IMG/VR virus record: IMGVR_UViG_3300046782_000297 | Coordinates: 3,178 to 67,177 of that record | DNA: 64,000 bases | Source: a virus | Strand: one strand, 5' to 3' | In this document: positions 23,807 through 41,803 of the stretch, piece after piece | Position numbering within the stretch: position 1 is the stretch's first letter | Layout of the letters: every line of letters starts with the position of its first letter | The notes under the pieces: model-generated | The model's database searches: none | Told to the model about the DNA's origin: nothing | Seen by the model: the letters and a program-made list of their open reading frames with translations, nothing else | Position numbers and translations under genes: made by a program

Positions 23807-26659
23807 CTAGTGTCTACCCCTTAAAGCTCCTGCCCCTATTCCGACAGCCCCAGGGTTTGATATACTGAATGCTGTACTTGTAGTCCCTGTCACCCCTGAG
23901 GCATTAGCATCAAGACTGCACGAGCCAGTCAGGGAACCAGAGAGCATACTCATATTTGTGGTTGTGAATAACCCAGCCACAGCAGCACCGGATGTAGTCC
24001 CGCTCAGTGTCATCCCTATGCAGGTTCCTGCATGGTTGGTTAGGGTTATCACTCTGGTATCTGTGCAGGTGACGCCCCCACCATCTTTTACCGCCACAGT
24101 GACAGTCCCAAGACTGCCCCCAACTACGGCACTTCCAGGCTGGGCTGTAAATGCCAAATGGTCAGGAGTACATGGGGTTGATATTGTGAATGTGTTACTG
24201 ACTCCAGCCGTTAAAGCTGCATCCGTAGCCGTGATTGATCCACTGCCCGTAGTAGTCGTGACGCTTAAGTCCGTAAAAGTAGCAATTCCGGCTACGGCTG
24301 CTTTGGTCAGAGTACCGGCAAGAGTCCCCCAAGTTGCCCCAGCAGTCTTAGCCACCGTGACGTTACTGGTGTCAGTATTACAAAGGACTCCACCAGCATT
24401 GTAGACACCCACTGTGACTGTGTTCAGTGTGGCATTTAACCCTGCGTTTTGAGGCTGGCTAATAAATACCAGATGGTCGGGTGTGCAGCTTCCAGCATTG
24501 GCCTCATAGTACCCAATGCTTGGAAATGCAGTGGAGTAAGTCCAGGGGGTGTTAGGTCCGTTGAACCCCGTCAGCGCCTTACCCACATTAGCCGCTGGAC
24601 TTGTGTTTAAGATGACCATGCTGGTAACATCAGAGCCACCGCTACAACCACCGGCCCCATTCTGAAAACATGGGTTAGTGGTCTTACCGATGCTGTTAAG
24701 GTCCTGACCAATGACGTTCTGGAATGTTCCAGCCGTGCCAGCTGGCCCCAATGCAAAGAAACTCAGAGTGGTTGGAGATGTAGTGCTATCCGTTAAGTCC
24801 CACTGCTTGCCAACATTATTCCCGTTGTTGACCTGATAGAAGAGGTTATTATCCCCAGTGTATCCAACAATTGAAGCCACTGTTATCGTTAGATCATTCA
24901 TAGGGGACAAGCCACCTGTGAATACCGTCCCAGGAATAACAAGCGTATCGTTCACCGCACAGCGCCCACCCAAATATCCAGGGTCCCTGATTGTGATATC
25001 TGTAAAGGCATTGGCAGCTACAACTACATCAAAGGAAACTTGGTAGATGCCCCCAGAGGCTTTGACACATGAGTTAGTCCCACTTGTTGGCTTCTTGGCA
25101 ATATAGGTTCCGGCAGTGACCCCGGACCCTGATCCAGTGAACGTCACAGAGTTTAGTAGCCCGCTCTGACCATTCACCATGATATTCCCATCAAGAGTCT
25201 TAATGATGTTGTTATAGGACTGGGTGTAACCACCCATGATATAGTAGCCGTCCCAGTTCACACTCCCACTAGTATTTGTATTGATTGACTCATGAAAGAT
25301 TCGATAGGGATAGAGGGTCTGCATCTTGAACATTGCCTCACCACCAGCCCCAGCAAAGTCCGTGTAACAATCATTGCGGAAGATCCAGATGGGGCCATAA
25401 GCTATTGAGGTGCTGTTCGTGTTAAAGGCATGGCAGGTGTTGCCAAAAGCACTAGGCTGCCCATTAGTCCCACATTGAGGTGCAGTGGCAGTATTACAGA
25501 CTGGCACCAGGGCCTGAGTCACCTTAATGTGGTTATTCCAACTCTTGGTATTAATATTCCATCCCTTGCTTTCATTCCCGTCATCCTTGTATCCGTTCGT
25601 CGTGTTGTCATGAATGTCGTTATTCTCTGTCTGGCAGTCATCGCTATCCGCCGTGATGGCATCCCGGAAAGATCCGGTGACAACATTAAATGCAAATACA
25701 TTATGGGAATTATTGCAGAATGCAATTCCAGCCGCTGGGGAATCGTATATGGGATTCTGATTACAGAGGCTTAATCCGTTAGCCGCTGCAACTACATTAT
25801 TCAATACATAGATTTTGGATGCTCCCCCAGTCAAGAAAATGCCGGTGTTGTTATACCCAGTGGGTGTTCCAGTGCCGGGACAGTCGGCAGCGACTGTGCT
25901 AGCGGAGACAGACTGTAGGGCATTGCCCTTAAGGATAATGTCATGAGCCGCAGCACCAATGACAATTCCAGACTTATTCGACTGAGGAAGGACCAACTGT
26001 CTGACAATCGTATAACTGCCTGTGATAGAAATATCGGCAGCAGTTCCCCCTGTCAATAGAGTCCCCCCAGCCGGGTCACCCTCAACCACAACATATGATC
26101 CAGCAGACCCATTAGCGGTAATCGTGAAGGCTGTAGTTTGGACTTGGTTGTAGGTTCCGGCATTGATATGCAGGAAATTATTAGTCCCATTATTAATGTT
26201 GGTGATGCAGGAATTGAGTGTTGTCAGATTCGTTGCGGTGCAGACACTAGCCCCCTCAACTGGGGCTGTGTTATATGTTGAAGTATTATCCACCTCGACC
26301 GGGTTAGATCCACTCACGCCGTCTGCATCACTAAAGGTGATACGTACATCGAAACTAGTGGCAATGGGAAGACCAACAACCACTGTGCGGGCTTCATTGA
26401 CATTGACGTTGGCAATTCCAGTCAGGAACTTCCGATGGTCAATGAACGGGGCATAAGCTGTAAGCCAAGTCATGGAGCTAGACGCCTTGTACTCGACTAC
26501 GGCGGAGTTGTTGGCATTGTCATCCCCAGTAAACTTAGCTCGAATTGACAAAGTTGTGTCTGTCACATTCACAGTCATAACGCCAGTGGTTGTGGCGTTA
26601 GTGGCAGCAAAAGCTGAGGAGGCAAAAAGTGTAAATATTACAAGTAGGAGCTTCTTCAC
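23807..26659 (-). CDS. Signal-peptide protein: FnIII/Ig-like domain, right-handed beta-helix and two Ig-like repeats (adhesin/depolymerase-like)
   Basis: MKKLLLVIFTLFASSAFA signal; HINAGTY lyase-like start; repeated CTPDHL.F..QP...GxATFT units; many paired Cys. Confidence 0.7.
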   Translation of the reverse strand: MKKLLLVIFTLFASSAFAATNATTTGVMTVNVTDTTLSIRAKFTGDDNANNSAVVEYKASSSMTWLTAYAPFIDHRKFLTGIANVNVNEARTVVVGLPIATSFDVRITFSDADGVSGSNPVEVDNTSTYNTAPVEGASVCTATNLTTLNSCITNINNGTNNFLHINAGTYNQVQTTAFTITANGSAGSYVVVEGDPAGGTLLTGGTAADISITGSYTIVRQLVLPQSNKSGIVIGAAAHDIILKGNALQSVSASTVAADCPGTGTPTGYNNTGIFLTGGASKIYVLNNVVAAANGLSLCNQNPIYDSPAAGIAFCNNSHNVFAFNVVTGSFRDAITADSDDCQTENNDIHDNTTNGYKDDGNESKGWNINTKSWNNHIKVTQALVPVCNTATAPQCGTNGQPSAFGNTCHAFNTNSTSIAYGPIWIFRNDCYTDFAGAGGEAMFKMQTLYPYRIFHESINTNTSGSVNWDGYYIMGGYTQSYNNIIKTLDGNIMVNGQSGLLNSVTFTGSGSGVTAGTYIAKKPTSGTNSCVKASGGIYQVSFDVVVAANAFTDITIRDPGYLGGRCAVNDTLVIPGTVFTGGLSPMNDLTITVASIVGYTGDNNLFYQVNNGNNVGKQWDLTDSTTSPTTLSFFALGPAGTAGTFQNVIGQDLNSIGKTTNPCFQNGAGGCSGGSDVTSMVILNTSPAANVGKALTGFNGPNTPWTYSTAFPSIGYYEANAGSCTPDHLVFISQPQNAGLNATLNTVTVGVYNAGGVLCNTDTSNVTVAKTAGATWGTLAGTLTKAAVAGIATFTDLSVTTTTGSGSITATDAALTAGVSNTFTISTPCTPDHLAFTAQPGSAVVGGSLGTVTVAVKDGGGVTCTDTRVITLTNHAGTCIGMTLSGTTSGAAVAGLFTTTNMSMLSGSLTGSCSLDANASGVTGTTSTAFSISNPGAVGIGAGALRGRH

Positions 26660-27393
26660 TTACCTACACCCATAGATGTTAACCTGCCAACACGCACTGA
26701 ACCCCCGGCAGCTACCGCTGGAACATGAAAACCGCTAGCCCCCCAGATGCCGCTGGAGGCTGTCCAATTGTGGGCGTTCGTTCCAGAACCGCCGATAATG
26801 TAGCTCCCGGCACCTAGAACAACGGTGTTGTCGGTATACACAGCCGTTCCTGTACTTAAAGTAAATGAGTGAACCCCTTGGATAAATGCGAGCGTTGCTC
26901 CGGTAGCATCAGCCCCACTGACCGTTAGAGTTGGATTCGTACTGGTTGTTGGCCCCGTAGTTACCACGTTATCAATCAGGGAGCAAGATGCTGCACCCTG
27001 GAATGCAATAACAGACAAAGCAACCGGGCGTGAGGTATTCCATGTTGAATGAAGAGTCAAAGTGGTCCCATTGGTTGGGGAGTCCCGGCAGAATTCCAGT
27101 AGAGAGAAGTTGCCAGCCGAGTTAATAGTGCTGCTGGGAATCAATGTCATCGCTTGGGCTGTGCCACCATTATCCCAAGTGAGGGCAATAGGGTTGCTGA
27201 TGGTATTCTGCGAAGCAAGACCTGCAAGAAGGATACAGTTTGATGTGCAGGACGAAAGCGTATACGTCCGATCCACAGACACACCTGGATTGACAGTGAT
27301 AAAAGACCCTGCCGTATTGTTAGCCACTGCCGCTAATAGGACCTGACCAAGTAGAAGCCCTATCAGAACTGCTCTGTATACCCGATGCCTCAT
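26656..27393 (-). CDS. Signal-peptide beta-sandwich protein
   Basis: MRHRVYRAVLIGLLLGQVLLA signal-like N-terminus; SCTSNC; T/S/G-rich. Confidence 0.55.
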   Translation of the reverse strand: MRHRVYRAVLIGLLLGQVLLAAVANNTAGSFITVNPGVSVDRTYTLSSCTSNCILLAGLASQNTISNPIALTWDNGGTAQAMTLIPSSTINSAGNFSLLEFCRDSPTNGTTLTLHSTWNTSRPVALSVIAFQGAASCSLIDNVVTTGPTTSTNPTLTVSGADATGATLAFIQGVHSFTLSTGTAVYTDNTVVLGAGSYIIGGSGTNAHNWTASSGIWGASGFHVPAVAAGGSVRVGRLTSMGVGK

Positions 27394-28371
27394 TTAGTTC
27401 TTCCTTATCAGGTTAATCCCACACCATGTCCCAGCCTGAGTTGCCCCACCCGGCACAGTCGTGCAGGCCCATGACAATGCAGTAGAGAAGGGGATGCCAA
27501 TAGGGGTGCCAAAGGGTATTGGGTTATTGCCGCCTCCAGTAGGGGCTGTACCTCCAGGTACTTTGAAGGACATCAGGACCGGGGTGCTCCCAAGGGTCAC
27601 ATTAGCTGAAAGTGAATTGAATAGGGAGACATACACGTCACCCGTATTAGCCCCAGAGTCCACCGCAAGCCCATATATCTGTCCAGCCGCATTGGATATC
27701 TGGGTAACCGCAGAACCTGTAGCCATGTAGGTGGTCACACCGCTACCAGTGGCAGTGGCTGAAGAGAGCACCGCCACTATGTCTGTAGTGTTGACAGGAA
27801 CCCAGTTAGCCCCATTCCAGTTGAATAAGAGGGCGGCTGTTGGCAGCGCCGTCCCAGTGCCAGGGATGGTTGAGGCTCCCGCGCTAACAGGGGCCGGACT
27901 GATAATGGATGCCTGAATGGTAGATGCCTTGAAACCCAGATAAGATATAGTAACCGTCCCAGATCCCGTTATGGGTGTGGACTCAAATAGCCTAAAGTAG
28001 GGGGCATTGCAAGTGGTTAGTGTGATAGCCCCGGCACTTGAGGTAACTGTCTGAGCACCGATGCAGTCAGAGGGTGAGGAAAAATCTCTAGTCCCAGACT
28101 GTTGTAGTTTTATGGCCCCAGCACTCACTGTGCCCACAACAGCAACCACGATGGTGTGAAGATAGACTCCAGCCGTGTTGCCCTGTGTGGCGTCAATAAT
28201 AGGTCCAGTTGTGGAGGCAGAACACCCTGGCGAACAGCTTGTGGATGTAAAGTTTACAACCTGACCGGCAGGAGAGTTTACAGCATTCTGCTGGGCATGC
28301 ACCCCTTTGGGCGGTATTTCCGCCAGAAGCGCAACAATCACCAGCACCACTAATAGGGCTAATCTCTTCAT
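27394..28371 (-). CDS. Signal-peptide beta-rich virion-accessory-like protein
   Basis: GAGG RBS then MKRLALLVVLVIVALLAEIPPKGVHA-QQ; Cys pairs such as SCSPGCS and WACTT...WCG. Confidence 0.6.
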   Translation of the reverse strand: MKRLALLVVLVIVALLAEIPPKGVHAQQNAVNSPAGQVVNFTSTSCSPGCSASTTGPIIDATQGNTAGVYLHTIVVAVVGTVSAGAIKLQQSGTRDFSSPSDCIGAQTVTSSAGAITLTTCNAPYFRLFESTPITGSGTVTISYLGFKASTIQASIISPAPVSAGASTIPGTGTALPTAALLFNWNGANWVPVNTTDIVAVLSSATATGSGVTTYMATGSAVTQISNAAGQIYGLAVDSGANTGDVYVSLFNSLSANVTLGSTPVLMSFKVPGGTAPTGGGNNPIPFGTPIGIPFSTALSWACTTVPGGATQAGTWCGINLIRKN

Positions 28372-28495
28372 AGTTACCTCATTCGGCTGTATTGAAATCC
28401 TGCCCACTATGCCTATAGGTTGGCAAGACCTTTAAGTTACTAATTCTAAACCAGTTAAGTCAAACTCCAGCATGCAAAAGTGTAAACTTTACACC

Positions 28496-28633: not shown

Positions 28634-28665
28634 TCACGGATCTCCTAATTGGATATTCGTCCCAC

Positions 28666-29727
28666 TTATGTGGGAGGCACGTAGGCCGTAATGAATCCAT
28701 TAACCACGGTGAGACTCCCATTAGTTCCAAAACCAGGGGTTATACTCTCTAAAACTACTGTTCCAGAGAATAAGACCGGAGGTAGGGCTACTCCGGAGTC
28801 CTTTATCTCCTCCCCTGTAACCCCTACTACAATATCGGTGGCGACAAACCCCCCACTAGTATCTATCGTCAAATTCCCATTGGAGTCTGGATAGGTGTAG
28901 GTCCTGTTGGCTGTATTGTTATGGACTAAGGTTCCTGTGAACAGTGTCCCGGAGAACCATATGAAATTGCCTACCAGTAAAGTTAGACCAGCAGCAGCCC
29001 AGTCTATAAACTCAGTGAGCACCCCAGCCAGTCTAATAGAGAACCTTCGTATTACATTGTTGGTAGCTGGACTGGACCACTCTGAGGAGTCTTGGTAGAC
29101 CACACGGGAGACTGCTCCACTGTCCTGTAGACTCTCTTGAGAGGACATTCCAAATCCAGTTGTTGCTGCCCCACTAGTAAGTCTCTCTTTTAGCCGGACA
29201 TTTTTGATGATGTTGGTGTCGGCATTCTTAAGCTGCTGAAGATAGCCCCCAGTAGTCACGAACTTGGACCCTATCCAAGTGTACTGAGTCTCCTTACCAG
29301 TATCGTTCTCAGTGAAGATGAATCCAAGGTCAGGAGTACCCAGGTCTCCTGGTATGCTAGCAATGGCTCCAACCATATCCCCAGCTACCCAGGTCCACAC
29401 TACTGGGCCGGTGAAGTCTGAGCCTATATAGAGACTGTCACGATCCTCTTCATAGAACAGACCCCCCAGAGCGGCTGGTGTGGTCAGCCGAATGGCATGA
29501 GTCCCAGTCTGAGCACTCCCCCCAAGATTGGTTACAGTGTTGGTTAGGGTCTGGGTGATAAGCTGCTTTATCTGCTGCTGAGTAATCATCTGGGAGGCAG
29601 TTGGTAGGGATGCTACCTGCCGTCTCAGCGCAAACAGATTATCAAATACCATCTTCAACGCCGCATGGTCTGGGTTGGACTCTATGAGGTGCTGGGGATA
29701 TTGCAGTCCTGGGTCTGGTCTGCTCAT
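28666..29727 (-). CDS. Tail needle/fibre-like protein
   Basis: N-terminal coiled coil, TANRTYTYPD motif and C-terminal GSLTVVNGFIT; follows the nozzle-like gene. Confidence 0.55.
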   Translation of the reverse strand: MSRPDPGLQYPQHLIESNPDHAALKMVFDNLFALRRQVASLPTASQMITQQQIKQLITQTLTNTVTNLGGSAQTGTHAIRLTTPAALGGLFYEEDRDSLYIGSDFTGPVVWTWVAGDMVGAIASIPGDLGTPDLGFIFTENDTGKETQYTWIGSKFVTTGGYLQQLKNADTNIIKNVRLKERLTSGAATTGFGMSSQESLQDSGAVSRVVYQDSSEWSSPATNNVIRRFSIRLAGVLTEFIDWAAAGLTLLVGNFIWFSGTLFTGTLVHNNTANRTYTYPDSNGNLTIDTSGGFVATDIVVGVTGEEIKDSGVALPPVLFSGTVVLESITPGFGTNGSLTVVNGFITAYVPPT

Positions 29728-32700
29728 GACCTGATTCCTACTGGTGCCTCAATATCGTGGGCAAGCTGATAGGGACCTTGCCTGCCCCACTCACCTACAT
29801 ATAGGTCAGACTCACTCAGATAGGGTGCCCATTCCTCACTGGACACTCCCGTGAAGAAGTAGAGCATGGCCTTATTGAAGGTGAACGGGAACATTGTCTT
29901 TTTTAATAATCCTCCAGTTGATGGTAGTACCAATGGCAGGGGGGCTGTTCCATCCTGCACCGTAATAGTTATGGTTACTGGGGCTGTGGCTCTATAGGCA
30001 AAGTTCCATTGTCTCAGATGACCATAGCTGGCCCACCCAAATGAGGTGCCCTGAGTCTTCCATTGGGTTACTGAAACTGGCACCCCCTGATACATGGGCT
30101 GCCAAGCAAAGATGGTAGTAGGTCCATCAATTAAATCGAAGTGGTCCGACCAGTTAAAGGTAACCCCCATGTACTTCAGTTCCATACCTATTGGGGCATT
30201 GGTCTGGATTCTATTTGTGCTGACTGGAACTATGTGGCTACCTACTGAGACCCCACCGACTACTGGGACCACATTCACACTAGACCTAGGGGTTAGGTCA
30301 AGGAAGGCATCATTAAACAACTGATCCTCCCGAATATCCCCACCATTGTATTCGAATGTGCCGTAGACCCCAATGATGGGGGCAGAATTATCATTGTGGT
30401 TGGCAACCTCAGTGTAAACTTTACCCGCCGTATCCGTCAGCACCATCATGGCATACCTAGTGGAGGCTGTAAGTACAGTGCCTTCCGGCTGTTCTACCGT
30501 ATAATGCCTGATGATTAGGTCAGCATAGTTGTCCACAATCCAGGCAGGGTTAGCCATGTCCCTCAGGTCACAGACTAAGGTTCTGGCCACTCCATTGCTG
30601 TCCCGATAGTCAAAGAACAGGTAAGAGTTACAGTAGGCTAGCCGGAAATCCCCAGCATATTTATAGTCCGGGGCAGCTACCTCACGACTATTGTATATGT
30701 AATCTACTGGGGTATTGATTCCCTCATGGGGGAATAGGGGATACAAGTCTGTATCGGTCAGGGATACTCCAATCCCCCCGGATGTCATCCAGATCCCATC
30801 CTTGGCCACAAAGTAGATGATCTTTCCATCTGTACAGTGGGCGTAGGGTGCTGCAAGCCCCCTGCTTACTGGGGCCTCAACCGGCTGGTAGCGGGTAGCT
30901 ACTGAACCAAAATTGGGGTATAGCTTCCACCATCTGCTAGAGGAGGCTACCAGAGCGATGCCGTTGATAACTTCTCCACCCAGTAAAGGCTCAGAAGGCT
31001 GAGTGATCTCCTGATTATAGCTATCTGGGGCTGAGTCCGGCTGATTTAACTTGGAGAAGTAAAAGTTCCCTGGCCGGAACGGATCTCCCGTACCAAATAC
31101 CGTACCCTCAGCATCAGGCCCCCACAGATAGGGCAGGTGCTGATTGGCAACCTTCGGCTCCAATACGGACAAGGTTGTAGGCGTGGCAGTCCCAGCATTC
31201 TCAACAAGTTGGAACAGATAAGCATAGTAGTTGGCTGCCGGGGGTGCCGCTAGTGTCTGGGCTGTTGGCCTAGTCCAGAACGTGTAGGCTGTCTGGGAAC
31301 CTACAGTAACCAGAGTGCCGGGTAGCCACCTCAATATAGTAGCTGGAGCGGGATTGGTAAACGGGGCTGCCGCAGACCAGATAACCAGGATAGTTGTGCC
31401 AGTCACCCTGATGGTAGTGGTGATTCCATTGACAGTCCCAGCCGTGATGTTGAAAGGCACATCAATAGTTGGCCAAGGCTCAAAGTTGTCATATTCCAGT
31501 AGATCCCCAGCCGCAGCAGCCGTATCAAAGTAGTTGTCTACAAATGAGTCCGTCCCCCCAGTCTTACGGGTTGACCCAACATACCGCCAAGAGGTAATGG
31601 TGCCACCAAACCTGAATATGTCCCAGGTGTCCATTTGGGCATCCCCAGTAGTATCAGTCATAAAAAGGATATTAGGCTGCCTTCTGGGACTGACATTGTA
31701 TCTGGTAGCTGGGGATGGATTGGACTTAACCCCAGTAACTGAGCTTCTACCACGGGTGATATAGAACAGGGGGGTATTGGCCCCCACATCTGGATGACCA
31801 CCCCCACCTACGAACAGCCCACCAAAAGCAATGGTAACCACGTCAGTAGTCTGCACCTCAATACGGATACCATTGCAATCGGATAGGGTCCGGTTGAGGT
31901 TATTGCCTGCTCGTATTAGCTGCCTAGTAGGAACAAAGAGCGTAGTCCACTGATTGGATGGCAACGGCACAGTGGTAGTTACTACTACTGGATTCGGCTG
32001 GACATTACCCTGAAAGGACAAGTCTGTATTATTGGCGGCTGGATTATCCACAACCTGAGTAACCTGGGTTGCCGCTGGGGGGTGGAATACCAAATCGTTT
32101 ACAGTGAACTGGATGTAGAAGTAGTTATCTGTATAGTTTACAGTCTGGTCAACATTGAACTTTATAGTCCCGATGACCAATTTGGACAGATCACTAATGT
32201 TGATGCCAATACCAATGTAATCATCCTGTTGGGCTATCTCATTGGTGGGATTCATCAACTGCTCGAATGGGTTGGTGCCCAGAGCTTGGGCGTAGTTAGC
32301 CGTGCCAGTTCCACTTGTTGTGCTGGATACGCTGGCAGACTGGATAGTATCCCCAGCCGTGACAAGGTTGGCCCCTGTCACTACAATAGCCCCAATACCT
32401 GAGATTACGTCTCCAGCCACGAAAGCATTAGCGGTGCTAACTTCAAAACAGATGGTTCCGTCCGGCCCTGTAGTGGTGGACAGCACAAAGCACTTCTCAG
32501 TAGTAGCCCCATGAGCCAACTTGACTAGGGCCGACCGGCGCAAAGAGGCTATAACTGAATCTGTATAGATGGAGGCTGCCTGAGGGTTGCCTGCCTGAAA
32601 TGTTGGTGATGTGGCATTGGACGGGAATTGGGTAGCCGCGATAACACAGCGCCCAGTAGTCCCAGCATAGTAGAAGATGGAAGCGATAACAAGATTGGTA

Positions 32701-33446
32701 TTCCCGTTGATCGGGGGTAACACATCCTGCACCACCGTGATGATATTGTCCCCTCCTTTATCAAGCTCGATAACCATGCCAAGCTGGAACTCATCAGTGT
32801 TAGCCACCTCTAGGCTATACCGCTTATCTACTCCTGAGGCTGGGTCTGCGAAAATGGACCCAATGTTAGATACTGGTAGTCTAAATGTATCTGAGGTGGC
32901 TCCTCCAGTTCCTCCAGGTGTCCAAGCTGCTGCATTTCCAGTAAACTCATAAACAGCAAAGGATTCGGGGCAAGCACTAGGAGGATTCTGCTGTTCCTCC
33001 AGTCCCACATTAGACATAGTTACTGCATTCAGGCTGTCGGGCACAGAGAACTTCTGGTAATCATTCTGGGTCCCTATGTACATATAGGGATTGGGTGACT
33101 GGTTGGGGCGGAACGGAATCATCCAGGCCCCCAGAGAAGTTCCAGCTAGAGTCCCAACCAAAGTCCCATTGTCCAGATAAATCTGGTTATTGGCATTGCG
33201 GGCCAGGAATCTGGGCATACTGTCTGTAGCCAAAGCTGCATAGGCTCTGATGTCCGTAATAGCTGCATTGGTTGTGGCAAACAGCAAATCATATCCCGGA
33301 CGAGTGGCCACAGTCTGAATATCATAAGATCGAATGTTCTGAGAGTAGGGAGACTTAGTAGCCTCAATAGAATCAGCCGGGGCATTGATTTTAATGCCCT
33401 GAAAGTGTGCTCTCCAGCCTCCCTCCGGCCTTTGGAATCCTGCCAT
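29724..33446 (-). CDS. Tail nozzle / DNA stabilisation protein (P22 gp10 or T7 gp12 analogue) with large insertions
   Basis: 1240 aa; FQGI...QNIR...TRPG start, beta-propeller-like YFSK..QPDS and IYFVAKDGIW; gene order. Confidence 0.6.
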   Translation of the reverse strand: MAGFQRPEGGWRAHFQGIKINAPADSIEATKSPYSQNIRSYDIQTVATRPGYDLLFATTNAAITDIRAYAALATDSMPRFLARNANNQIYLDNGTLVGTLAGTSLGAWMIPFRPNQSPNPYMYIGTQNDYQKFSVPDSLNAVTMSNVGLEEQQNPPSACPESFAVYEFTGNAAAWTPGGTGGATSDTFRLPVSNIGSIFADPASGVDKRYSLEVANTDEFQLGMVIELDKGGDNIITVVQDVLPPINGNTNLVIASIFYYAGTTGRCVIAATQFPSNATSPTFQAGNPQAASIYTDSVIASLRRSALVKLAHGATTEKCFVLSTTTGPDGTICFEVSTANAFVAGDVISGIGAIVVTGANLVTAGDTIQSASVSSTTSGTGTANYAQALGTNPFEQLMNPTNEIAQQDDYIGIGINISDLSKLVIGTIKFNVDQTVNYTDNYFYIQFTVNDLVFHPPAATQVTQVVDNPAANNTDLSFQGNVQPNPVVVTTTVPLPSNQWTTLFVPTRQLIRAGNNLNRTLSDCNGIRIEVQTTDVVTIAFGGLFVGGGGHPDVGANTPLFYITRGRSSVTGVKSNPSPATRYNVSPRRQPNILFMTDTTGDAQMDTWDIFRFGGTITSWRYVGSTRKTGGTDSFVDNYFDTAAAAGDLLEYDNFEPWPTIDVPFNITAGTVNGITTTIRVTGTTILVIWSAAAPFTNPAPATILRWLPGTLVTVGSQTAYTFWTRPTAQTLAAPPAANYYAYLFQLVENAGTATPTTLSVLEPKVANQHLPYLWGPDAEGTVFGTGDPFRPGNFYFSKLNQPDSAPDSYNQEITQPSEPLLGGEVINGIALVASSSRWWKLYPNFGSVATRYQPVEAPVSRGLAAPYAHCTDGKIIYFVAKDGIWMTSGGIGVSLTDTDLYPLFPHEGINTPVDYIYNSREVAAPDYKYAGDFRLAYCNSYLFFDYRDSNGVARTLVCDLRDMANPAWIVDNYADLIIRHYTVEQPEGTVLTASTRYAMMVLTDTAGKVYTEVANHNDNSAPIIGVYGTFEYNGGDIREDQLFNDAFLDLTPRSSVNVVPVVGGVSVGSHIVPVSTNRIQTNAPIGMELKYMGVTFNWSDHFDLIDGPTTIFAWQPMYQGVPVSVTQWKTQGTSFGWASYGHLRQWNFAYRATAPVTITITVQDGTAPLPLVLPSTGGLLKKTMFPFTFNKAMLYFFTGVSSEEWAPYLSESDLYVGEWGRQGPYQLAHDIEAPVGIRS

Positions 33447-34798
33447 TACTGCTCATCCTCTGGTGTAAAGTTTACATCGTCATATACTGGATTAGCCTCA
33501 GCCTGTAGCTGACTAAGCTCATAGGTGGGTTTAGTGAACTCCCCTAACTCATTGAGCTTATGGTTGTAGACTAATGCCTGTTTGTGGAACCTCTGGACTA
33601 GAGGGATAGTGCTGATAAACTCAGTCCCGCCCATCTTTAATGCCGCCATATGCTGGGCATAGTCCAGGATGGCTTCTAGGTCATCCTTACTAACCTGAAC
33701 AAAGTCCCCATCATTAACTGGGACTGGGGCATTCTCCACCACCATCATGGTCACGGCATAAACTGCATCAGGTCTAGGGCCTATAGCAATTAGATTCAGG
33801 CCAGCCACTCCCAGCATGTCGGGTGACCCTACTGGTTCTGCCTGCCAGCCCACCCGGTAATCATCATAGTTTTGGATTGCATCAATATCCAAAGGCAGGT
33901 TATTGATACGGGCATAGAGGATAGCTGGAGAATTCATCAGTATGGCTAGCCCCTGCCTATACCTCATCTCGCAGTACTGTGCCCTGATCGGGTCCTTAGC
34001 ATTGCTCTCCCGGCTAAATAGGTCAGCCAAGGCACCCCACTTAATAACCCATGCGAAGTCATCCGGCACACCCAGCAGTGTGGAATTCTGGTCAGTCAGG
34101 GCTGGGCCAGCATCCACGGTGAGCACATCATATTGCCCAGGTACAGCGGGCTGAGTATCCACATCAAAACTTAATGGAGGCTCAGAGGACTGCCGGTAAG
34201 ACGTAGGTTCACCAGGATCATTGGTTGTGTAGTTGGTGTCAAAAGCCTGCAATGCCCATTGGTCATCGGCCAGCAATGGGCTGGCTGTGAAACCTGATGG
34301 AGTAGTGACCGGCAACCACGCCACCCTCCTAATGTCAATCACTGAATCCGGCAGAATAGTCCGACCTGGATTGGCGGGCACATTGCGCTGAGTGATCGTA
34401 CAGCCAGTTATAGAAAGTACTTCGTCACGTCTCCTCTGGATGGCATTGAGAATGTCGGCAATACTGAACTGGGCTGAACCTGTCCATGCCAATGGATATA
34501 CTGAGGTGACTGGCTCTAATAGATGATACTGGATCATCTGAATAAGGTCATTGTCGGTAAGTGTGTATGCCCTCAGAGTGTTGGCAAGAGCCGGGATGTT
34601 GTACCAGAATTGGCTATTGTCTGTCTGGAATATAAACTCAGACTTCCAGAAGGAAGTCAGTCCATTCCAAGTCCTAAGTGCCTCCACAATGTAGGCATTC
34701 TTTTCAGCATTAGACCAGAAAGAATTAGCTGTTGTATCAAATAGCCGCTCAGAGAGTTGGGTGCGGATCTGACCTAAGTTAGAATAGGTATAGGGCAT
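33446..34798 (-). CDS. Head-tail adaptor-like protein
   Basis: LGQIRTQLSERL..FWSNAE..YIVEAL, PRPDAVY and AILDYA patterns typical of adaptor proteins. Confidence 0.55.
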   Translation of the reverse strand: MPYTYSNLGQIRTQLSERLFDTTANSFWSNAEKNAYIVEALRTWNGLTSFWKSEFIFQTDNSQFWYNIPALANTLRAYTLTDNDLIQMIQYHLLEPVTSVYPLAWTGSAQFSIADILNAIQRRRDEVLSITGCTITQRNVPANPGRTILPDSVIDIRRVAWLPVTTPSGFTASPLLADDQWALQAFDTNYTTNDPGEPTSYRQSSEPPLSFDVDTQPAVPGQYDVLTVDAGPALTDQNSTLLGVPDDFAWVIKWGALADLFSRESNAKDPIRAQYCEMRYRQGLAILMNSPAILYARINNLPLDIDAIQNYDDYRVGWQAEPVGSPDMLGVAGLNLIAIGPRPDAVYAVTMMVVENAPVPVNDGDFVQVSKDDLEAILDYAQHMAALKMGGTEFISTIPLVQRFHKQALVYNHKLNELGEFTKPTYELSQLQAEANPVYDDVNFTPEDEQ

Positions 34799-36955
34799 TT
34801 AGTTCCACTTCTTCCGCACTTTGATAAATAGCGTTAACGACCCAAGGTCTACCGGAAAAATCGTGGTGTTTGTGAGCAACACAACAACTGTGTCCAGCGC
34901 GGCGTAGGCATAGAAGATCAGCCCATCCGACTGAAGATTGGTAGCTAGCTCAACGAAATCACCTACCGCAGACCCTGTTACAGATATCGTTGTTTTAACG
35001 CTGTTCCCGGCCATCCCAACGGCGGGTACGCTTGGCGGGTCCCATGTCGCTTCAACATATAGCGGGATGAACACTGGATCTGGGACATTCGAGATGTAGT
35101 TGTCGCCCCACGACTGGTCATATACATCGACACTGAACGGGGCGTAGTCCAGTCTATTGTTATCAATGGTGTTGCCAGATGAACTGACCTTAATCCCAAT
35201 CTTTCCATTCCCGGTGTTGTAAAAATCGGCAACCGAGTTCCCTGTGATGACGTTGTTTGCTCCAGTCTTGATGCCGCCGACCGTGGTAACTGGGCCATTA
35301 TTATTGTTCAGCGTGTTATTGCTTATCAGGTGAAAAAACCCAAGACCTCCATCAATCCAAAATCCCGATGCGACCGTTGCTGAATTCCAGGCATTTCCCT
35401 GGCAGATGTTTGAAGTGCTGCCACTGCCGCCCATATAGATCTGGCCAGAGAAGTAGCCGACGTTCCCACTGAATACGCAGCCGCCGGAGTTCATGAAGTC
35501 AATTTCGCGGCCCGTGCGTGTTGTGCCAAAGGTGTTATTGCTGATGATATTCACTCCACCGTTGACGACGATGCTCGTTGTGCTGAAGGCTCCGGTCTGG
35601 AAACAGCTACTGCAAATCGAGTTATTTCGACCGTCGATCTGAATGACTGTGCCAGTATTGCGATTAAATTGGCACCCCCAGACATTGACATAATCTCCCT
35701 TGAGGTAGATGAACAACTGGTTACTGTCCGGCTCCGTGATCGTCTCCGCCTCAAATCTGATATCTGATATGTTATTCGTGCTTACACCTGTCAACTCCGC
35801 CTGAATATAAGGAGCAAGGTGGTTGACTTCCATCCGTCCACCGTGGATTCCAATTGACTCACATGCACCATTACCTCCGGTCGGATTCAGCCAGAGCGCA
35901 GGTTTCCCAACATCCCCACATTCGGTTATCACAAAGTCTGTGATCTGCGACTTCACCACAAAGTCGCAATTAATCGCGCACCCTTTAATGAAATGGAAAT
36001 TACAGTTGCTGACGGTAGACTCCGTGAAGTCATGAAGATCCAGTGCTGCCGTACAGGTGTAGAATCGGTTCAGGACATCCATAAAGCACAGGCCTTGAAC
36101 CTTTCCACCGTTAGTCCCTCGATCAGGCAAGTATATTGGCTGGGCTTGAAAGCGGAATATAGGACCAGAGATATCTGCTCCAAGAACAATAGCAGGACCA
36201 TCCGTAGTGAACGTGTCTCCGGCCATCTCCGATAGTAGAGTGATCGGCTTCAACGAGGACCATACCACCGTATCTTTCACAAGATATTTTTCATTATGTG
36301 ACGATGGGAAGAATACCGTTCCACCATTTGCTACAACAGCCGCCGCGACAGCCTTCAGAGCAGGAGTCGCGTCCGTAATCCCGTCCGTTGGGGTAAAGAA
36401 CGGAGCAGCGGTCACATCGAGCCAGAGAGGGGTTGGGTCGAATGCCCGCAAATCTCCAATGGTAAACGGTGAGGCAATACCCAATCCAGAAAAGTTCACA
36501 TCGTAGTTGCCATTCGGGACATAGAAGAACCATGTACCGTCAACGGATGCCGTGAAAGGATTCGCTTTCGGCGTTCCGACATCATCGGAATAGAGCGTTG
36601 CCAACCCGAGGGAGGTAGCTGTACCCCCACCAGATGCAGTATCACCCCCAAACTGAGCAAAAGTGAATGTAGTTGGTGCAACAGAGGTTATAATGAAAGT
36701 GCCATCAAAGGAGGAGTCTGTGACCCCTGTAATATTTACACTCTGGCCCTGAGCAAACCCGTACCCGGCAGGCATAGTTACCGTAACAATGTTGCCATTC
36801 CTAACTATATTGCTGATATTCAGGGAAATTGGGGTATGGATATACACGGTCACAGTAGCTAATGGGAAAGACCCCTGCACCTTAGTGGTGGAAGAGAGTC
36901 CTCCCAGAGCTACAATTGTGTTACCTTTTTCAACCCAGCCTTGTGCTTTCTGCAT
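34799..36955 (-). CDS. Tail spike, pectate-lyase-like beta-helix, no signal peptide
   Basis: LYSD....ANPFTA..DG.W.FY attachment domain, DGITDATPAL...GGTVFFP, Asn-ladder repeats. Confidence 0.8.
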   Translation of the reverse strand: MQKAQGWVEKGNTIVALGGLSSTTKVQGSFPLATVTVYIHTPISLNISNIVRNGNIVTVTMPAGYGFAQGQSVNITGVTDSSFDGTFIITSVAPTTFTFAQFGGDTASGGGTATSLGLATLYSDDVGTPKANPFTASVDGTWFFYVPNGNYDVNFSGLGIASPFTIGDLRAFDPTPLWLDVTAAPFFTPTDGITDATPALKAVAAAVVANGGTVFFPSSHNEKYLVKDTVVWSSLKPITLLSEMAGDTFTTDGPAIVLGADISGPIFRFQAQPIYLPDRGTNGGKVQGLCFMDVLNRFYTCTAALDLHDFTESTVSNCNFHFIKGCAINCDFVVKSQITDFVITECGDVGKPALWLNPTGGNGACESIGIHGGRMEVNHLAPYIQAELTGVSTNNISDIRFEAETITEPDSNQLFIYLKGDYVNVWGCQFNRNTGTVIQIDGRNNSICSSCFQTGAFSTTSIVVNGGVNIISNNTFGTTRTGREIDFMNSGGCVFSGNVGYFSGQIYMGGSGSTSNICQGNAWNSATVASGFWIDGGLGFFHLISNNTLNNNNGPVTTVGGIKTGANNVITGNSVADFYNTGNGKIGIKVSSSGNTIDNNRLDYAPFSVDVYDQSWGDNYISNVPDPVFIPLYVEATWDPPSVPAVGMAGNSVKTTISVTGSAVGDFVELATNLQSDGLIFYAYAALDTVVVLLTNTTIFPVDLGSLTLFIKVRKKWN

Positions 36956-36958
36956 ATA

Positions 36959-39088
36959 TTAACAGGTTGTCGATGTGAGCAGCCCAAGTGTGAAGGTCAT
37001 AGTGCAGGTCCCACTACCCGCCGCATTCCTGACTGTCACTACGGCTGATACTGCATTAGAGCCATCTAGTAAGGCCAACCACCCAGTATTCGTTCCATTA
37101 CCAGTCGCTTTTCCCCAGATTGTAGTATTAGCCCCACCACTCTCATTCAAATACACATCCCCAACATTGCCGGTGACAACCCCGTTTGGGTTCCCAGCCC
37201 CTCTGACAATTTGGCTTCCATTAGCTCCTCCCATCCTGATAACCGAGGGGTTAAATACAGCATCCTTGTTGGGGTCCTCCCCTAAGGTGACCCTTCCGCT
37301 GGAATCTATCTTGACCATTCCTTTCGGATTAGTCCCATCATTAGCTGCTAGCCACTTCTCATTAGCAATCACAAGAGGATTACCATTCGTGGTACGGTCG
37401 CCAGCCAGAGATAGGGTTCCGCCAGTATAGGCATTTTGGGCATCCCCATCAATTTCAACATGGTCATTAGTATTGCTGATACGGATAATCTTCTTCTCTA
37501 CCCCAGATGCAATGGTGGATGCCAAGGCATTGTTGTCAACCAAGGCAATGGAGTTGACGGGGTTTGCAACCCCTAGACCTAACCGGGGAACCTGGGTATT
37601 AGATGCTGTTGCATCATTGTAATCCCAGTCGATAAAAACAGACCCCCCAGTTACAATTGTAGCCCCGGCATTAATGTCAAAGAAATTACCAGAGGCTTTA
37701 ATACTGACGGAGGTATCAACGTTTAACGCTACCCCAGTACGAGAATACAAGTTGTCTAGGAGCTTTACACCACCAATGGAATTTCTGAAGTAATACCCAT
37801 TCTGATTAACCGAAGCCGCCGCATAGCAATTCCGAACTGTGGTATTGAACGTTGATATGTTCCCTGGAGACCAGAAAATAGTATATCCAGCCGCATTGGT
37901 GGACTGCTCCGTCCGGCAATTGTTAATCGAGTTGTTGTAGCTAGTAACCAATTCCCCAGAACTTAAATAATAGAACCCGTAGGTTCCACCAACCCATGCC
38001 TGATAGCCGTCCCATGTATTGTTGGTCAGCCATACCCCGGAATCAACTATCCAAATGGGATTTATACTGACAGCACTACCGTTAATGCAATTGCAGGCAT
38101 ATATGTTATAGAAGTGGGAGTGATCCATCTGAACAATGTTGCTATTCGGATCGGCCACAATATGGAATGGCTTATCAGCGAAGTCTGTAATGTCATGAAC
38201 ATCAAATGTCTGTCTCCCCCCAAGTTGCATCCCAGTGCTGGCATTAGTGGTATCATGCCAATTTGATATAGCAACATGGGAGATTACTAACTCCTCGGCA
38301 TCCACAACATTGATGGCAGTTTTAACTCTGGAGGTATTCACAATGGCATCCAGAGTGAGTCCCGTTATTTGACCATAGCCTATGGTCACGGATGAGAGAG
38401 CTTTCCATAATATGAGGTTGGCTGTACCGGAAGGATTGAATTCCAATACAGTTACTGCTTCCCCCAACCCCACAATGGTTGTACCACTAAATGCCACCCT
38501 CTGCTCTACTGTAGTGGTGAAGACAGCGGCACCCAGCAGCAGATTGACCGGCCCATTTGCACTAGCAAATATGTTCTGGGTGATGTTCTGATTACCACGA
38601 AAATTACGGGCATCAGCAGTTCCACCCGTACTGGGCAGAGCGGCTATGCAGGAAGCTATCTTAGCCCCTGCATTGGCCCCAATATATCGAGGAGTGGAAC
38701 AGTCAAATACTGGCCCCGTAGATGGATCATATATGGTGACACTGGGAAGAGTGATAGGGGATGGAATCCCAGCCCCAGACCTAACTATGTCGTATTGACC
38801 ATTGTTGGTAAAGAACGTCCAAGAACCATTGAGGTTTGCCGTAAATGGGTTACTCAGAGGAGTTGGCACAGTCCCATTGTCGGAGTAGATAGTTGCCAGA
38901 GTAACAGTTCCAGCACCATAGACTGTAATGACACACTGGGGGAAACTCCGCTGGACATTAGTGGAACTATTCAGCCCACCGGAAACTACCTTCTGGTTGC
39001 CAGTTTCGCAGAACCCATTGGCTGCCCCCAGGGAGTAGCCCATGCAGGGGAAGAGTAGGAAGAGTAGAAGTGTAAACTTTACACGCAT
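36959..39088 (-). CDS. Tail spike-like beta-helix protein with N-terminal signal peptide; paralog of 34799..36955
   Basis: MRVKFTLLLFLLFPCMGYS then the same IYSD..SNPFTA..NGSW.FF domain; GAKIASCIAALPSTGGT; GAGNPNGVVTGNVGDVY. Confidence 0.75.
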   Translation of the reverse strand: MRVKFTLLLFLLFPCMGYSLGAANGFCETGNQKVVSGGLNSSTNVQRSFPQCVITVYGAGTVTLATIYSDNGTVPTPLSNPFTANLNGSWTFFTNNGQYDIVRSGAGIPSPITLPSVTIYDPSTGPVFDCSTPRYIGANAGAKIASCIAALPSTGGTADARNFRGNQNITQNIFASANGPVNLLLGAAVFTTTVEQRVAFSGTTIVGLGEAVTVLEFNPSGTANLILWKALSSVTIGYGQITGLTLDAIVNTSRVKTAINVVDAEELVISHVAISNWHDTTNASTGMQLGGRQTFDVHDITDFADKPFHIVADPNSNIVQMDHSHFYNIYACNCINGSAVSINPIWIVDSGVWLTNNTWDGYQAWVGGTYGFYYLSSGELVTSYNNSINNCRTEQSTNAAGYTIFWSPGNISTFNTTVRNCYAAASVNQNGYYFRNSIGGVKLLDNLYSRTGVALNVDTSVSIKASGNFFDINAGATIVTGGSVFIDWDYNDATASNTQVPRLGLGVANPVNSIALVDNNALASTIASGVEKKIIRISNTNDHVEIDGDAQNAYTGGTLSLAGDRTTNGNPLVIANEKWLAANDGTNPKGMVKIDSSGRVTLGEDPNKDAVFNPSVIRMGGANGSQIVRGAGNPNGVVTGNVGDVYLNESGGANTTIWGKATGNGTNTGWLALLDGSNAVSAVVTVRNAAGSGTCTMTFTLGLLTSTTC

Positions 39089-40110
39089 TAGATTGCTGCT
39101 CCTGGGTAGGCAGTCTGGCTAATCGTATTGTACAAAGCGTAGTATTTACCATATAGAGAACTACGCCTAACTCTAAACCAGTTGTCGATAAACTCCCTAT
39201 CCTGCATCCTCAGTTTCCTATACAGAGATTGATAATTAGCCTGGGTCTCACCCATCAGGAACTTCCAATCCGGCCCTTGATTTCTAGGCAATGCTCCTTT
39301 ATTGGCCTCAGCCCACTCGTAGGCGTATACTTTGGCTCTGGCAATTACAGCTTCCTCAGTAACCTGTGGAGGCAGTGTGTCAGAATTACTCACAAGGTCT
39401 GGGAACTTCCTGATGCCATAAAGCTGGTAGGCCCGGTTGGTGAGTGGCACACCCCACAGTTCAAAGATAGGAAACCTGTAAGTGGCTGTGTTGTTCGGGT
39501 CTGTCCCCGTAATGAAGGGCACCACATGAGTGGGAAAATAGTACCAAGTCCTCTGGGGGTCCTGCTCATTCAACCACGCCATGTTCTGGTCAAGTATCAG
39601 GTCAGTGAAATTCACCATATCCCTAACCGACACAAAACTCAGATGATCCTGAAACGGCGCGGGATAGTAGCACTGATATATCTGGTATCCGTTGCCGGTC
39701 ACTGCCGGTGCATCTGGAAAGCCCCTATCAAGGGTAAGGATGCTGGCACCATCCCAAGCAGTGATATTACATACTGTGGATATACCAACCCGGAACTGTC
39801 TTTGATTGATGGGGTTGAAGGTAGTCAGTGATGCATTGACAGCAGCAGCCGCAACACCATTGAGGGTGACTAGGTTGGAACCCTGGACAGCCGTGGCCGT
39901 GCCGGTATTAACCAGTGGAGGAGCTATCCAGTTGCTGTCATAGCACTGAAAGGACCAGAGATTCTGTCGCCTCAGGTCGGCCCAGGCCCTATTAACTATT
40001 GTTTTGCAATAGCTTATAGCTATCTTGGGGACCGTACCGCGTATCTCCCTAACCATGTTAATAAAAGCCACAGTACCCCCAGATGTGGCAAAGGGGTTGG
40101 GAAGCCCCAA
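39088..40110 (-). CDS. Head-tail adaptor/tail tubular-like protein
   Basis: VNRAWADL...WSF and GTATAVQGSNLVT insertion; gene order after the capsid genes. Confidence 0.5.
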   Translation of the reverse strand: MGLPNPFATSGGTVAFINMVREIRGTVPKIAISYCKTIVNRAWADLRRQNLWSFQCYDSNWIAPPLVNTGTATAVQGSNLVTLNGVAAAAVNASLTTFNPINQRQFRVGISTVCNITAWDGASILTLDRGFPDAPAVTGNGYQIYQCYYPAPFQDHLSFVSVRDMVNFTDLILDQNMAWLNEQDPQRTWYYFPTHVVPFITGTDPNNTATYRFPIFELWGVPLTNRAYQLYGIRKFPDLVSNSDTLPPQVTEEAVIARAKVYAYEWAEANKGALPRNQGPDWKFLMGETQANYQSLYRKLRMQDREFIDNWFRVRRSSLYGKYYALYNTISQTAYPGAAI

Positions 40111-40136
40111 CCCCCTGCCTGTAAGTGTGCTACGGA

Positions 40137-40698: not shown

Positions 40699-40730
40699 AA
40701 AAAAGGGGGTAGAGTGACAGCCCTACCCCG
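40699..40730 (-). terminator. Rho-independent terminator after the capsid gene cluster
   Basis: GGGGTAGGG-CTGTCA-CTCTACCCC followed by a T-run; palindrome copy immediately downstream at 40682. Confidence 0.7.
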
Positions 40731-40744
40731 TAGTGTGCGCTCGC

Positions 40745-41101
40745 CTAGGAGAAAACTGCTTTGAACCTAACGACCTCGCCAGACAAATCAACGGCGGGGG
40801 CGACTTCGGCATTGGTTGCTAGCACGTACCAGAGGATGTTGACCTTATATACACTCTGATTCTGGGCTGTTGGGGCCGCATCAATCGGAAGATACTGCAC
40901 ACGGCAGTAATAGGTTCCGGAGTATGACAGACCCTGGCCGGTGTCCACGAAGTCAAACCCACCTTTACCAAACTGAGCAGCCGTAACTAGCTGACCCCCA
41001 GTGGCATAAGATAGGGGACCCGCTAACTCATAGATCCCTACATCTTTAGTGCCCCAAGCCTGCTGGTAGCCAGGAAGTGAGGCTGCTTGTTGTGCGTTCA
41101 C
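40745..41101 (-). CDS. Small virion (head decoration-like) protein
   Basis: GPLSYATGG...EVAPAVDLSGEVVRF pattern; GGAGG RBS; capsid operon. Confidence 0.5.
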   Translation of the reverse strand: MNAQQAASLPGYQQAWGTKDVGIYELAGPLSYATGGQLVTAAQFGKGGFDFVDTGQGLSYSGTYYCRVQYLPIDAAPTAQNQSVYKVNILWYVLATNAEVAPAVDLSGEVVRFKAVFS

Positions 41102-41110
41102 AGATACCTC

Positions 41111-41803
41111 CTAGTTACCAATGCAGCGGTAGTCGATAACAGTTGTGACAGTATTGGGTCCGGTGAGGGTCATGGCTGTCCCAGAAGTCTTGTTGATGGC
41201 AATACCGCCAGCGGCCACAGCCGCAGTAGTGCCTTCGGGGGTTGCCGTACAGACGTAGCTGGTGCTGGTGGTAAATGGCAACTGAGTTATAGAGGCAATG
41301 GATGGGCTAGCAGAACTCAGAGCCACAGTACCATATGCCTCAATCAGACCCGCAGCACCAACACCCGTATTGGCGCAAGTTGCTGTAGTTCCACAACTTT
41401 GATTCACCTTAACCAAATATGCTGTAGACGCCTGCTGGGGTCCGGCAATTCGAGTAATGGCAGATCCAGAAGTCTCCACATAAGCCATCAGGGTATTGCC
41501 TGATGCCATAGCTGTGACTGGGTTGGTAGTAATGGCCACAGTTCCAGAAGAATTGGCATAGACAAAGTTGCAACCCGCATAAGACGGCGAGGAGCAATCA
41601 GACTTAGATGTGGTAACTGAGCCGGTCCCCGCTGTAATGGTGACCGCATGGCCACCATTAAGAACAGTCCCTGCCGTCCATTTCACCACGGTAGCAGTGG
41701 ACTGAGCCACATTGGGTAGTCTCAGGTTGGTCTGAGCCAGTGCCGTGCCTTGCAAGATGAGGCAGAAGACAACAGCCAAAGACGCAATGTAAAGTTTACG
41801 CAT
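41111..41803 (-). CDS. Signal-peptide, T/S/A-rich beta protein in the capsid operon
   Basis: MRKLYIASLAVVFCLILQGTALA-Q; Cys pairs DCSSPSYAGC, SCGTTATC and YVC...YRC. Confidence 0.65.
   Translation of the reverse strand: MRKLYIASLAVVFCLILQGTALAQTNLRLPNVAQSTATVVKWTAGTVLNGGHAVTITAGTGSVTTSKSDCSSPSYAGCNFVYANSSGTVAITTNPVTAMASGNTLMAYVETSGSAITRIAGPQQASTAYLVKVNQSCGTTATCANTGVGAAGLIEAYGTVALSSASPSIASITQLPFTTSTSYVCTATPEGTTAAVAAGGIAINKTSGTAMTLTGPNTVTTVIDYRCIGN

Follow-up and report, generated by a model that had tools for sequence, protein, structure and literature searches.

A 64,000-base stretch of DNA from an uncultured soil phage with a short tail (the window; 64,000 of the 67,177 bases of IMG/VR record IMGVR_UViG_3300046782_000297, completeness estimated at 78%) contains five late genes, here named A to E, whose products begin with leaders of the kind recognized by the Sec export machinery. 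Across related phages such leaders are restricted to variable, non-core late proteins, and in D the leader precedes a conserved N-terminal module and a beta-helix of the tailspike type. We consider it highly probable from the sequences that the five proteins are exported and fold oxidatively. Export is supported by the conservation of the leaders in the A, C, D, and E families, by their restriction to non-core proteins, by the co-occurrence of leader and Cys pair in the module of D, and by the even Cys parity of leader-bearing proteins. Tailed-phage particles are taught to be built wholly in the cytoplasm. The further reading that D docks late, after holin opening, and that A and perhaps B, C, and E act free of the particle is evenly poised, and is weighed below against the alternatives.

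Leaders and start sites

An earlier note on this DNA had pointed out five open reading frames (ORFs) with signal-like N-termini, all in one orientation and embedded among capsid and tail genes. All five are present on the minus strand: A (950 residues; 23807–26659), B (245 residues; 26656–27393), C (325 residues; 27394–28371), D (709 residues; 36959–39088), and E (230 residues; 41111–41803, between a gene following the capsid gene and the genes of the proteins p118 and p340). The major capsid protein, portal, terminase, SU10-type adaptor, and nozzle genes were recognized near them from Pfam matches and from homologues in Tunturi_1, a cultured podophage of Acidobacteriota. The leaders with their predicted cuts (slash) are MKKLLLVIFTLFASSAFA/AT in A (residues 1–18; 26606–26659), MRHRVYRAVLIGLLLGQVLLAAVA/NN in B (residues 1–24; 27322–27393), MKRLALLVVLVIVALLAEIPPKGVHA/QQ in C (residues 1–26; 28294–28371), MRVKFTLLLFLLFPCMGYSLGA/AN in D (residues 1–22; 39023–39088), and MRKLYIASLAVVFCLILQGTALA/QT in E (residues 1–23; 41735–41803). 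Each contains two or three Lys or Arg residues, followed by an uncharged hydrophobic run of 13–17 residues and an A-x-A or similar site. The features expected of signal peptidase I substrates, namely a positive n-region, an uncharged hydrophobic h-region of about 8–20 residues, and small residues at positions −3 and −1 within about 16–35 residues of the start, were found in all five leaders, with scores of 4.9–7.3 (6.5 for A and 4.9, the lowest, for D). The scores are from our own crude Sec-leader scorer with a threshold of 4.5, and leader calls combine it with conservation in homologues.

Lipoprotein signals are cleaved at a lipobox of the form L-[ASTVI]-[GAS]-C, and signals of the twin-arginine translocation (Tat) route have a twin arginine in a long n-region. 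Both routes were rejected, as inspection by eye found no lipobox and no twin arginine in the five leaders, and the F-P-C of D does not fit. Gln very often follows the predicted cut (VHA/QQ, ALA/QT, ASA/QT, GFA/QT, and AGA/QT); it was seen in the C and E leaders, in gp12, gp13, and gp17 of Tunturi_1 (locus L002), and in the E-family proteins P0047–P0091. The residue may reflect a host-specific preference of signal peptidase or the formation of an N-terminal pyroglutamate.

The starts, which the earlier note had allowed might lie downstream of the hydrophobic segments, were judged credible where they stand. A begins with a GTG that overlaps the stop of B (GTGA), and B with an ATG immediately after the TAA of C, with AAGGAAG upstream. 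C begins with the ATG at 28371, with GAGGT 5 nucleotides upstream, and a longer version starting with the GTG at 28407 is less likely. The ATG of D overlaps the stop of the upstream gene (TAATG) and has AGGAG upstream, and GAGAGGAA precedes the ATG of E at 41803. In B, C, D, and E, the start is thus preceded at a suitable spacing by a Shine-Dalgarno-like purine run. In a 76%-identical relative of A, Leu stands at the position of Met28, the next in-frame Met of A, which makes a downstream start of A unlikely.

The scorer flagged exactly A–E among the 61 ORFs of at least 100 residues in the window. Within a greedy set of 92 ORFs, the same five rank highest in early N-terminal hydrophobicity among those with a positive n-region. 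In control phages, it flagged none of 30 in T7 and three of 49 in lambda (Lom, RexB, and Rz), all of them membrane or exported proteins and none a virion protein. Related phages were collected through D, which returned 33 homologues as a query; an alignment of the shared N-terminal module yielded 79 related IMG/VR loci, mostly on contigs of 57–68 kb. These loci, referred to here as the clade, encode homologues of the capsid protein (50), p340 (48), the adaptor (40), the portal (35), and the nozzle (33). Only one of 289 core particle protein homologues in them was flagged (0 of 50 major capsid proteins, 0 of 48 p340, 0 of 40 adaptors, and 1 of 33 nozzles), the single case being a truncated nozzle ORF at a locus edge. 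Among the non-core co-oriented ORFs of at least 100 residues, 99 of 683 were flagged, and the number was 51 of 142 for non-core ORFs of at least 400 residues. The leader-bearing genes are grouped in variable slots where spikes or fibres are expected. Across the clade, leaders are restricted to variable, non-core late proteins.

The survey of homologues that the earlier note had proposed showed that the leaders are kept in the A, C, D, and E families. The scorer found a leader in five of six homologues of the A N-terminus, and the sixth was recognized by eye. It was positive for 41 of the 45 homologues of E; the other four, which have longer n-regions and a hydrophobic run, were again recognized by eye. 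For C, 43 of 148 homologues were positive (31 of the 85 longer than 170 residues and 12 of the 63 of at most 170 residues), and many of the leaderless ones are small and align only to the C-terminal domain of C. The module of D is leader-bearing in 55 of 91 unique cores, where leader presence was taken as a hydrophobic window of at least 2.5 upstream of the module.

Cysteines, folds, and the spike module

Closely spaced Cys pairs in all five proteins were another claim of the earlier note, and short-range pairs could be listed for each. The mature parts have even Cys counts throughout (A, 20; B, 4; C, 6; D, 10; and E, 6). The short-range pairs include 140–151, 388–396, and 664–672 in A; 49–53 (C-x3-C) in B; 46–50 and 303–317 in C; 27–52, 130–147, 332–334, and 695–709 in D; and 72–80 and 139–145 in E, the last two in the numbering of the 232-residue version with a TTG start at 41809, from which 2 is to be subtracted for the 230-residue protein. 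A BLASTP comparison of B with C, prompted by the common C-x3-C, gave no significant match. Among clade co-oriented ORFs of at least 100 residues, the leader-bearing mature proteins have even and odd Cys counts in a ratio of 62:17 (17 more have none), compared with 300:343 for the remaining ORFs (binomial p = 3.6e-7, odds ratio 4.2). The median Cys content is 1.67% in the leader-bearing proteins and 0.75% in the rest. The even parity of the leader-bearing proteins is what disulfide pairing predicts, and it points to an oxidising compartment.

D consists of the leader, a conserved N-terminal module (residues about 23–125; 38714–39022) that includes Cys27 and Cys52, and a tailspike-like beta-helix. 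Its structural model has a predicted local distance difference test (pLDDT) score of 66, with about 80–90 in residues 50–490, and shows a leader helix, a beta-sandwich module (residues 22–119), and a long beta-helix. The best Foldseek matches were the tailspikes of P22, Sf6, Dettilon, and CBA120 (E = 6e-5 to 1e-3), AlgE epimerases including AlgE4, alginate lyases, and WceF. The body of the D model is a right-handed parallel beta-helix, as in tailspikes, and the conserved module sits on exchangeable distal parts beside adaptor and nozzle genes: it is found on proteins of about 200 to 2150 residues with differing C-terminal domains, in the slot with p340, adaptor, and nozzle. The slot is the same with or without a leader. 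Locus L036 has p340, a leader-bearing 585-residue homologue of D, the adaptor, and the nozzle, and locus L013 has p340, a leaderless 805-residue homologue, the adaptor, and the nozzle.

These features liken D to the podovirus tailspikes (P22 gp9, Sf6, Dettilon gp208, and CBA120 TSP2 and TSP3), since an N-terminal module is followed by a variable beta-helix and the gene adjoins those of adaptor and nozzle, as in the podovirus tailspike layout. Known podovirus tailspikes, however, are leaderless and fold in the cytoplasm, whereas D and 55 of the 91 module relatives carry a Sec-type leader, mostly together with the Cys pair. In addition, Pfam detected no sequence similarity between D and podovirus tailspike families. 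WceF of Pantoea (6tgf) is a tailspike-fold, glycan-modifying enzyme. Although WceF is among the structural matches of D, it is a chromosomal, bacterial protein, whereas D has the spike module of the clade and lies in the spike slot.

The module also occurs without a leader. F (718 residues; 34799–36955, minus strand) is a leaderless paralogue of the N-terminal module of D with a C-terminal part of the beta-helix type. Residue 1 of F aligns to residue 20 of D, and W and A replace the Cys pair of D. Many other relatives likewise begin straight at the module. Both Cys27 and Cys52 are present in 48 of the 55 leader-bearing modules compared with 2 of the 36 leaderless ones (Fisher test, p about 1e-15, kinship ignored). 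On a tree computed with the two Cys columns excluded, at least 15 changes of leader state occur. The module of F is interrupted by about 67 inserted residues (F residues 39–105), and an insert of this type recurs in leaderless proteins of three related loci (L007, L015, and L061).

The cultured relative Tunturi_1 displays this pattern as well. Its gp12 (1190 residues) has the module of D including the leader and the Cys pair, and gp13, gp14 ('tail spike'), gp16, and gp17 ('virion structural protein') are likewise leader-bearing; gp12, gp13, gp14, gp16, and gp17 contain 20, 10, 21, 2, and 32 Cys, respectively. Apart from the module of gp12, the leader proteins of Tunturi_1 are not homologous to A, B, C, and E by tblastn. 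The available portion of the paper describing the Tunturi phages mentions neither signal peptides nor virion proteomics or mass spectrometry (PMC11924767).

A appears to comprise an FN3-like N-terminal domain, a right-handed beta-helix resembling a glycanase or lyase, and two immunoglobulin (Ig)-like C-terminal repeats that match bacterial Ig-like domain proteins, in a model of low confidence (pLDDT 47 overall, 70–90 in residues 140–380). The core of residues 140–380 matched a GH87 glucanase, a GH28 exopolygalacturonase, alginate and fucoidan lyases, and the HK620 tailspike, and the E values of the matches to GH87, GH28, and PL6-type enzymes went down to 5e-8 with low template modelling (TM) scores. 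No Pfam family passed the cut-off for A. B matched no Pfam or PHROG family, and the ESM Atlas gave only viral hypothetical clusters for it. C has two domains, of which the C-terminal one of about 120 residues (residues about 200–324) is also found as stand-alone small proteins (63 of 148 hits are of at most 170 residues, and 51 of these 63 are leaderless); no PHROG family was obtained for 10 C homologues, 7 of them of at most 170 residues. The domain is a common one in phages. E is a small beta-rich protein, and nearly all of its 45 homologues have six Cys. Atlas leads for E to H-type lectin and Gp53-like_C clusters (scores of 0.84–0.90) are weak and lie below the level of evidence. A tblastn search of A and E against cultured phages gave no match. 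The earlier note had spoken of spikes and decorations; the label of decorations for B, C, and E gained support from no test. An endolysin identity was rejected for all five proteins, in which Pfam and PHROGs found no lysozyme, amidase, or peptidase family.

Docking onto the particle or free action

The earlier note had offered two alternatives, either that the proteins are exported, oxidatively folded, and attached to particles at or after lysis, or that they are displayed or secreted to remodel the host surface. The premise shared by both, export with disulfide formation, is strongly supported by the present results, and neither the attached nor the free alternative is singled out in silico. 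We propose that the host Sec machinery exports A–E, that signal peptidase I takes off their leaders, and that the proteins would then acquire disulfide bonds as they fold in the periplasm of a soil-dwelling diderm host, remaining there until lysis. Jointly, they would make up the variable host-surface gear of the phage, with D as a tailspike composed of the clade N-terminal module and a depolymerase-like beta-helix, A as a bacterial-type beta-helix glycanase with Ig-like repeats, and B, C, and E as small Cys-paired proteins, possibly sugar-binding. When the holin breaches the inner membrane, the finished leaderless particles would meet this periplasmic pool, and D would dock on the tail via its N-terminal module, beside F, the spike made in the cytoplasm. 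Some of the set, namely A and perhaps B, C, and E, may remain free, digesting or binding matrix polysaccharide. Tailspike addition is the last assembly step of P22 and works in vitro. Phage late proteins that use Sec and are kept in readiness beyond the cytoplasm until holin action are described, in the available part of the source, for the Sec-leader endolysin Lys44 of phage fOg44 and the signal-arrest-release (SAR) endolysins (PMC6116005). These, however, are muralytic proteins and not of the spike or fibre type, and Pfam and PHROGs detected no muralytic domain in A–E.

Attachment of D is favoured by its conserved N-terminal module, by the syntenic slot, and by the five complete relatives, in each of which a single copy of the module is present and bears a leader. 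Docking of D is further favoured because the module starts at residue 1 of the leaderless F and because the fold of D matches podovirus tailspikes. Free action of at least part of the set is favoured because A resembles a free bacterial glycanase and because the window also encodes the leaderless spike F.

According to the strongest alternative, all five proteins are exported and never become part of the particle, acting as free periplasmic or released depolymerases and lectin-like binders. Working from within the envelope, they might cleave or cover the receptor polysaccharide, which would lead to superinfection exclusion or keep progeny from sticking to debris, or they might loosen the matrix for egress after lysis, and the particle would use only leaderless parts such as F and the 353-residue post-nozzle protein. 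Both of these parts are in the window, and F has the same module as D. A, which resembles secreted bacterial glycanases, has no spike module, and the leader-bearing genes are clustered in variable, cargo-like slots. Free depolymerase activity around plaques is well known, according to the available part of the source (PMC6116005). The lambda lom gene is an example of an exported non-virion gene located between tail genes; Lom resembles A–E in its leader and gene position but is a small protein of the outer membrane, in contrast to the large beta-helix proteins A and D. Against this alternative, D retains the module that heads leaderless spikes, and the module is about 50% identical between phages that share about 30% identity in their capsid proteins. 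The complete 61.7-kb genome G001, moreover, encodes no large non-core late proteins other than the leader-bearing homologue of D, a 679-residue protein with an N-terminus that is leader-like by eye, and a 377-residue post-nozzle protein. Free action of all five is in our view possible but somewhat less likely than not.

Leader-bearing proteins annotated as structural are found in Cellulophaga phage phi10:1 (KC821618), a further point against free action. The N-termini of its gp091–094 are leader-like, and the GenBank notes read 'structural protein, experimental MS/MS' (tandem mass spectrometry). These four are consecutive late-operon proteins with MKK...-type leaders, and a pectate lyase gene adjoins them. 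In contrast to the present phage, phi10:1 is a siphovirus of a Bacteroidota host, and gp091–094 have few Cys (0–2).

Several observations weigh against the proposal that D docks after export. The leaderless spike F, which has the module of D, could be the only spike of the particle, and F contains 12 Cys although it is leaderless. A is without the module and in structure comes closest to free bacterial enzymes (in a low-confidence model); no fold could be assigned to B, C, or E. The association of leader and Cys pair has exceptions, since seven leader-bearing modules are without one or both Cys and both are present in two leaderless modules, of which one shows a weaker leader-like stretch and one is possibly a truncated gene call. 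An independent-pairs test of leader against Cys pair found four supported pairs, about three of them concordant and none opposite (median p = 0.25); this phylogeny-aware test is underpowered, not contradictory. Detection of the phi10:1 proteins by MS/MS in a particle preparation proves neither attachment nor cleavage. No paper describing exported phage spikes or assembly across the inner membrane was found in the literature searched, which gave leader-bearing endolysins, spanins, and bacterial tailspike-like enzymes instead. No endolysin, holin, or spanin was recognized in the window, including 10 small ORFs; the lysis cassette may be encoded in the portion of the genome that the record lacks. 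A complex prediction for the adaptor and the N-terminal module of D scored 0.00, which speaks neither for nor against binding.

Two other explanations concern the leaders themselves and the role of the genes. The hydrophobic N-termini might be uncleaved membrane anchors, structural helices, or the result of mis-called starts and not cleaved Sec leaders. The h-region of D holds Pro-Cys and its score is the weakest of the five, and downstream in-frame Met residues are present in A (residue 28) and D (residue 16). However, all five N-termini have small −3 and −1 residues after the h-region and Shine-Dalgarno-like or coupled starts, and the close relative of A has Leu in place of Met28. The leader character is kept while the sequence drifts (only 7 of 18 leader residues of A are identical in that relative), and conservation starts right after the predicted cut. 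Leaderless homologues begin exactly at the module, and the Cys parity and the Cys-pair association point to an oxidising compartment. We regard this explanation as quite improbable. Morons that encode exported proteins, such as lom and bor, are known, and it is less probable still that the five genes are such lysogenic-conversion cargo, expressed from a prophage to alter the host surface and unrelated to lytic growth: the genes do occupy variable slots, and related phage contigs have been binned with Acidobacteriota and Gemmatimonadota genomes, but the five run in the same direction as the late structural genes and are closely coupled to them (in two of the five, the start overlaps an upstream stop), two of the five products are spike- or enzyme-type proteins of 700–950 residues and not small exclusion proteins, no integrase turned up in the scanned window proteins, with not every ORF searched, and Tunturi_1 and Tunturi_2, both cultured relatives, are podoviruses obtained by their ability to form plaques, according to the available portion of their description (PMC11924767).

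Docking of D after export may extend to the whole clade, Tunturi_1 and Tunturi_2 included. Receptor-binding tailspikes would then be Sec pre-proteins that fold oxidatively in the periplasm and are added, after the holin has acted, to spike-less particles built in the cytoplasm; we put this forward tentatively, as a generalization that is somewhat more likely to fail than to hold. If docking after export is true, tailed-phage assembly spans two compartments, which would provide disulfide-hardened spikes for life in acidic soil. Spike folding would depend on the Sec and Dsb systems of the host, and the expression of such spikes or depolymerases for engineering or host-range prediction would need periplasmic routes. 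If free action is true, phages send out a large array of proteins that modify the host surface ahead of lysis. In both cases, such proteins would be mislabelled by annotation pipelines in which a leader counts as evidence against 'virion protein'. Throughout a large group of soil phages, some of them in culture, export signals and signatures of disulfides mark the parts that decide the host range, and Tunturi_1 with its host, Tunturiibacter psychrotolerans X5P2, offers a direct test.

Late-gene order, relatives, and host

Nearly all genes of the window are on the minus strand. As read from Pfam and from homology to Tunturi_1, the late block begins with the large terminase, portal, scaffold, major capsid protein, a 225-residue protein, and E; continues with p118, p340, D, F, the SU10-type adaptor, the 1240-residue nozzle, the leaderless 353-residue protein p353, C, B, and A; and ends with p135, an acetyltransferase-like protein, and large Pro/Ala-rich proteins. 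The following four particle proteins are leaderless. The major capsid protein (42754–43896, minus strand) shares 30% identity, across 99% of its length, with the protein annotated as major head protein in Tunturi_1 and Tunturi_2. The conserved tail or connector protein p340 (39088–40110, minus strand), encoded directly upstream of D, is a homologue of Tunturi_1 gp11, annotated as 'tail protein'. The tail adaptor of the SU10_adaptor family (33446–34798, minus strand; Pfam PF24175, E = 1.5e-10) is homologous to Tunturi_1 gp30, and the nozzle-type large tail protein (1240 residues; 29724–33446, minus strand) is 34% identical to Tunturi_1 gp31 over 1075 residues. As a single query against viral contigs, the nozzle protein found no relatives. 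Pfam and PHROG searches with A–E and their neighbours gave almost only the SU10 adaptor and the acetyltransferase-like match.

Tunturi_1 (PP887698) and Tunturi_2 (PP885685) are cultured podoviruses of Acidobacteriota that infect Tunturiibacter. The late module of the window is syntenic with theirs, with homologues of the terminase, portal, capsid protein, p118, p340, adaptor, nozzle, p135, and p740, and the late proteins of the window are 24–38% identical to their Tunturi_1 homologues. A search of genome contigs found four related phage contigs in metagenome-assembled genomes (MAGs), three of Acidobacteriota and one of Gemmatimonadota. The host is probably a diderm soil bacterium, an Acidobacteriota species; the MAG binning fits such a host and is no proof of it.

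The acetyltransferase-like gene (23024–23386; phrog_1249, E = 8e-4) lies within the tail module, and its relative position matches that of Tunturi_1 gp34, annotated as 'acetyltransferase'. An 83-residue ORF at 51728–51979 has an N-terminus resembling a transmembrane segment. The replication genes of the window include a family A DNA polymerase and a helicase. The polymerase is apparently split across 4704–8800 on the minus strand, where the gene at 7427–8800 has a uracil-DNA-glycosylase-like domain and a weak 3'-5' exonuclease match, the gene at 4704–6161 has the polymerase domain, and three small Cys-rich ORFs (6158–7406) separate the two. At the right end of the window, a plus-strand trio (59893–63052) encodes an AAA_5 ATPase, a 311-residue protein without a family, and a DUF2201_N/DUF2201 protein (VWA-like putative metallopeptidase).

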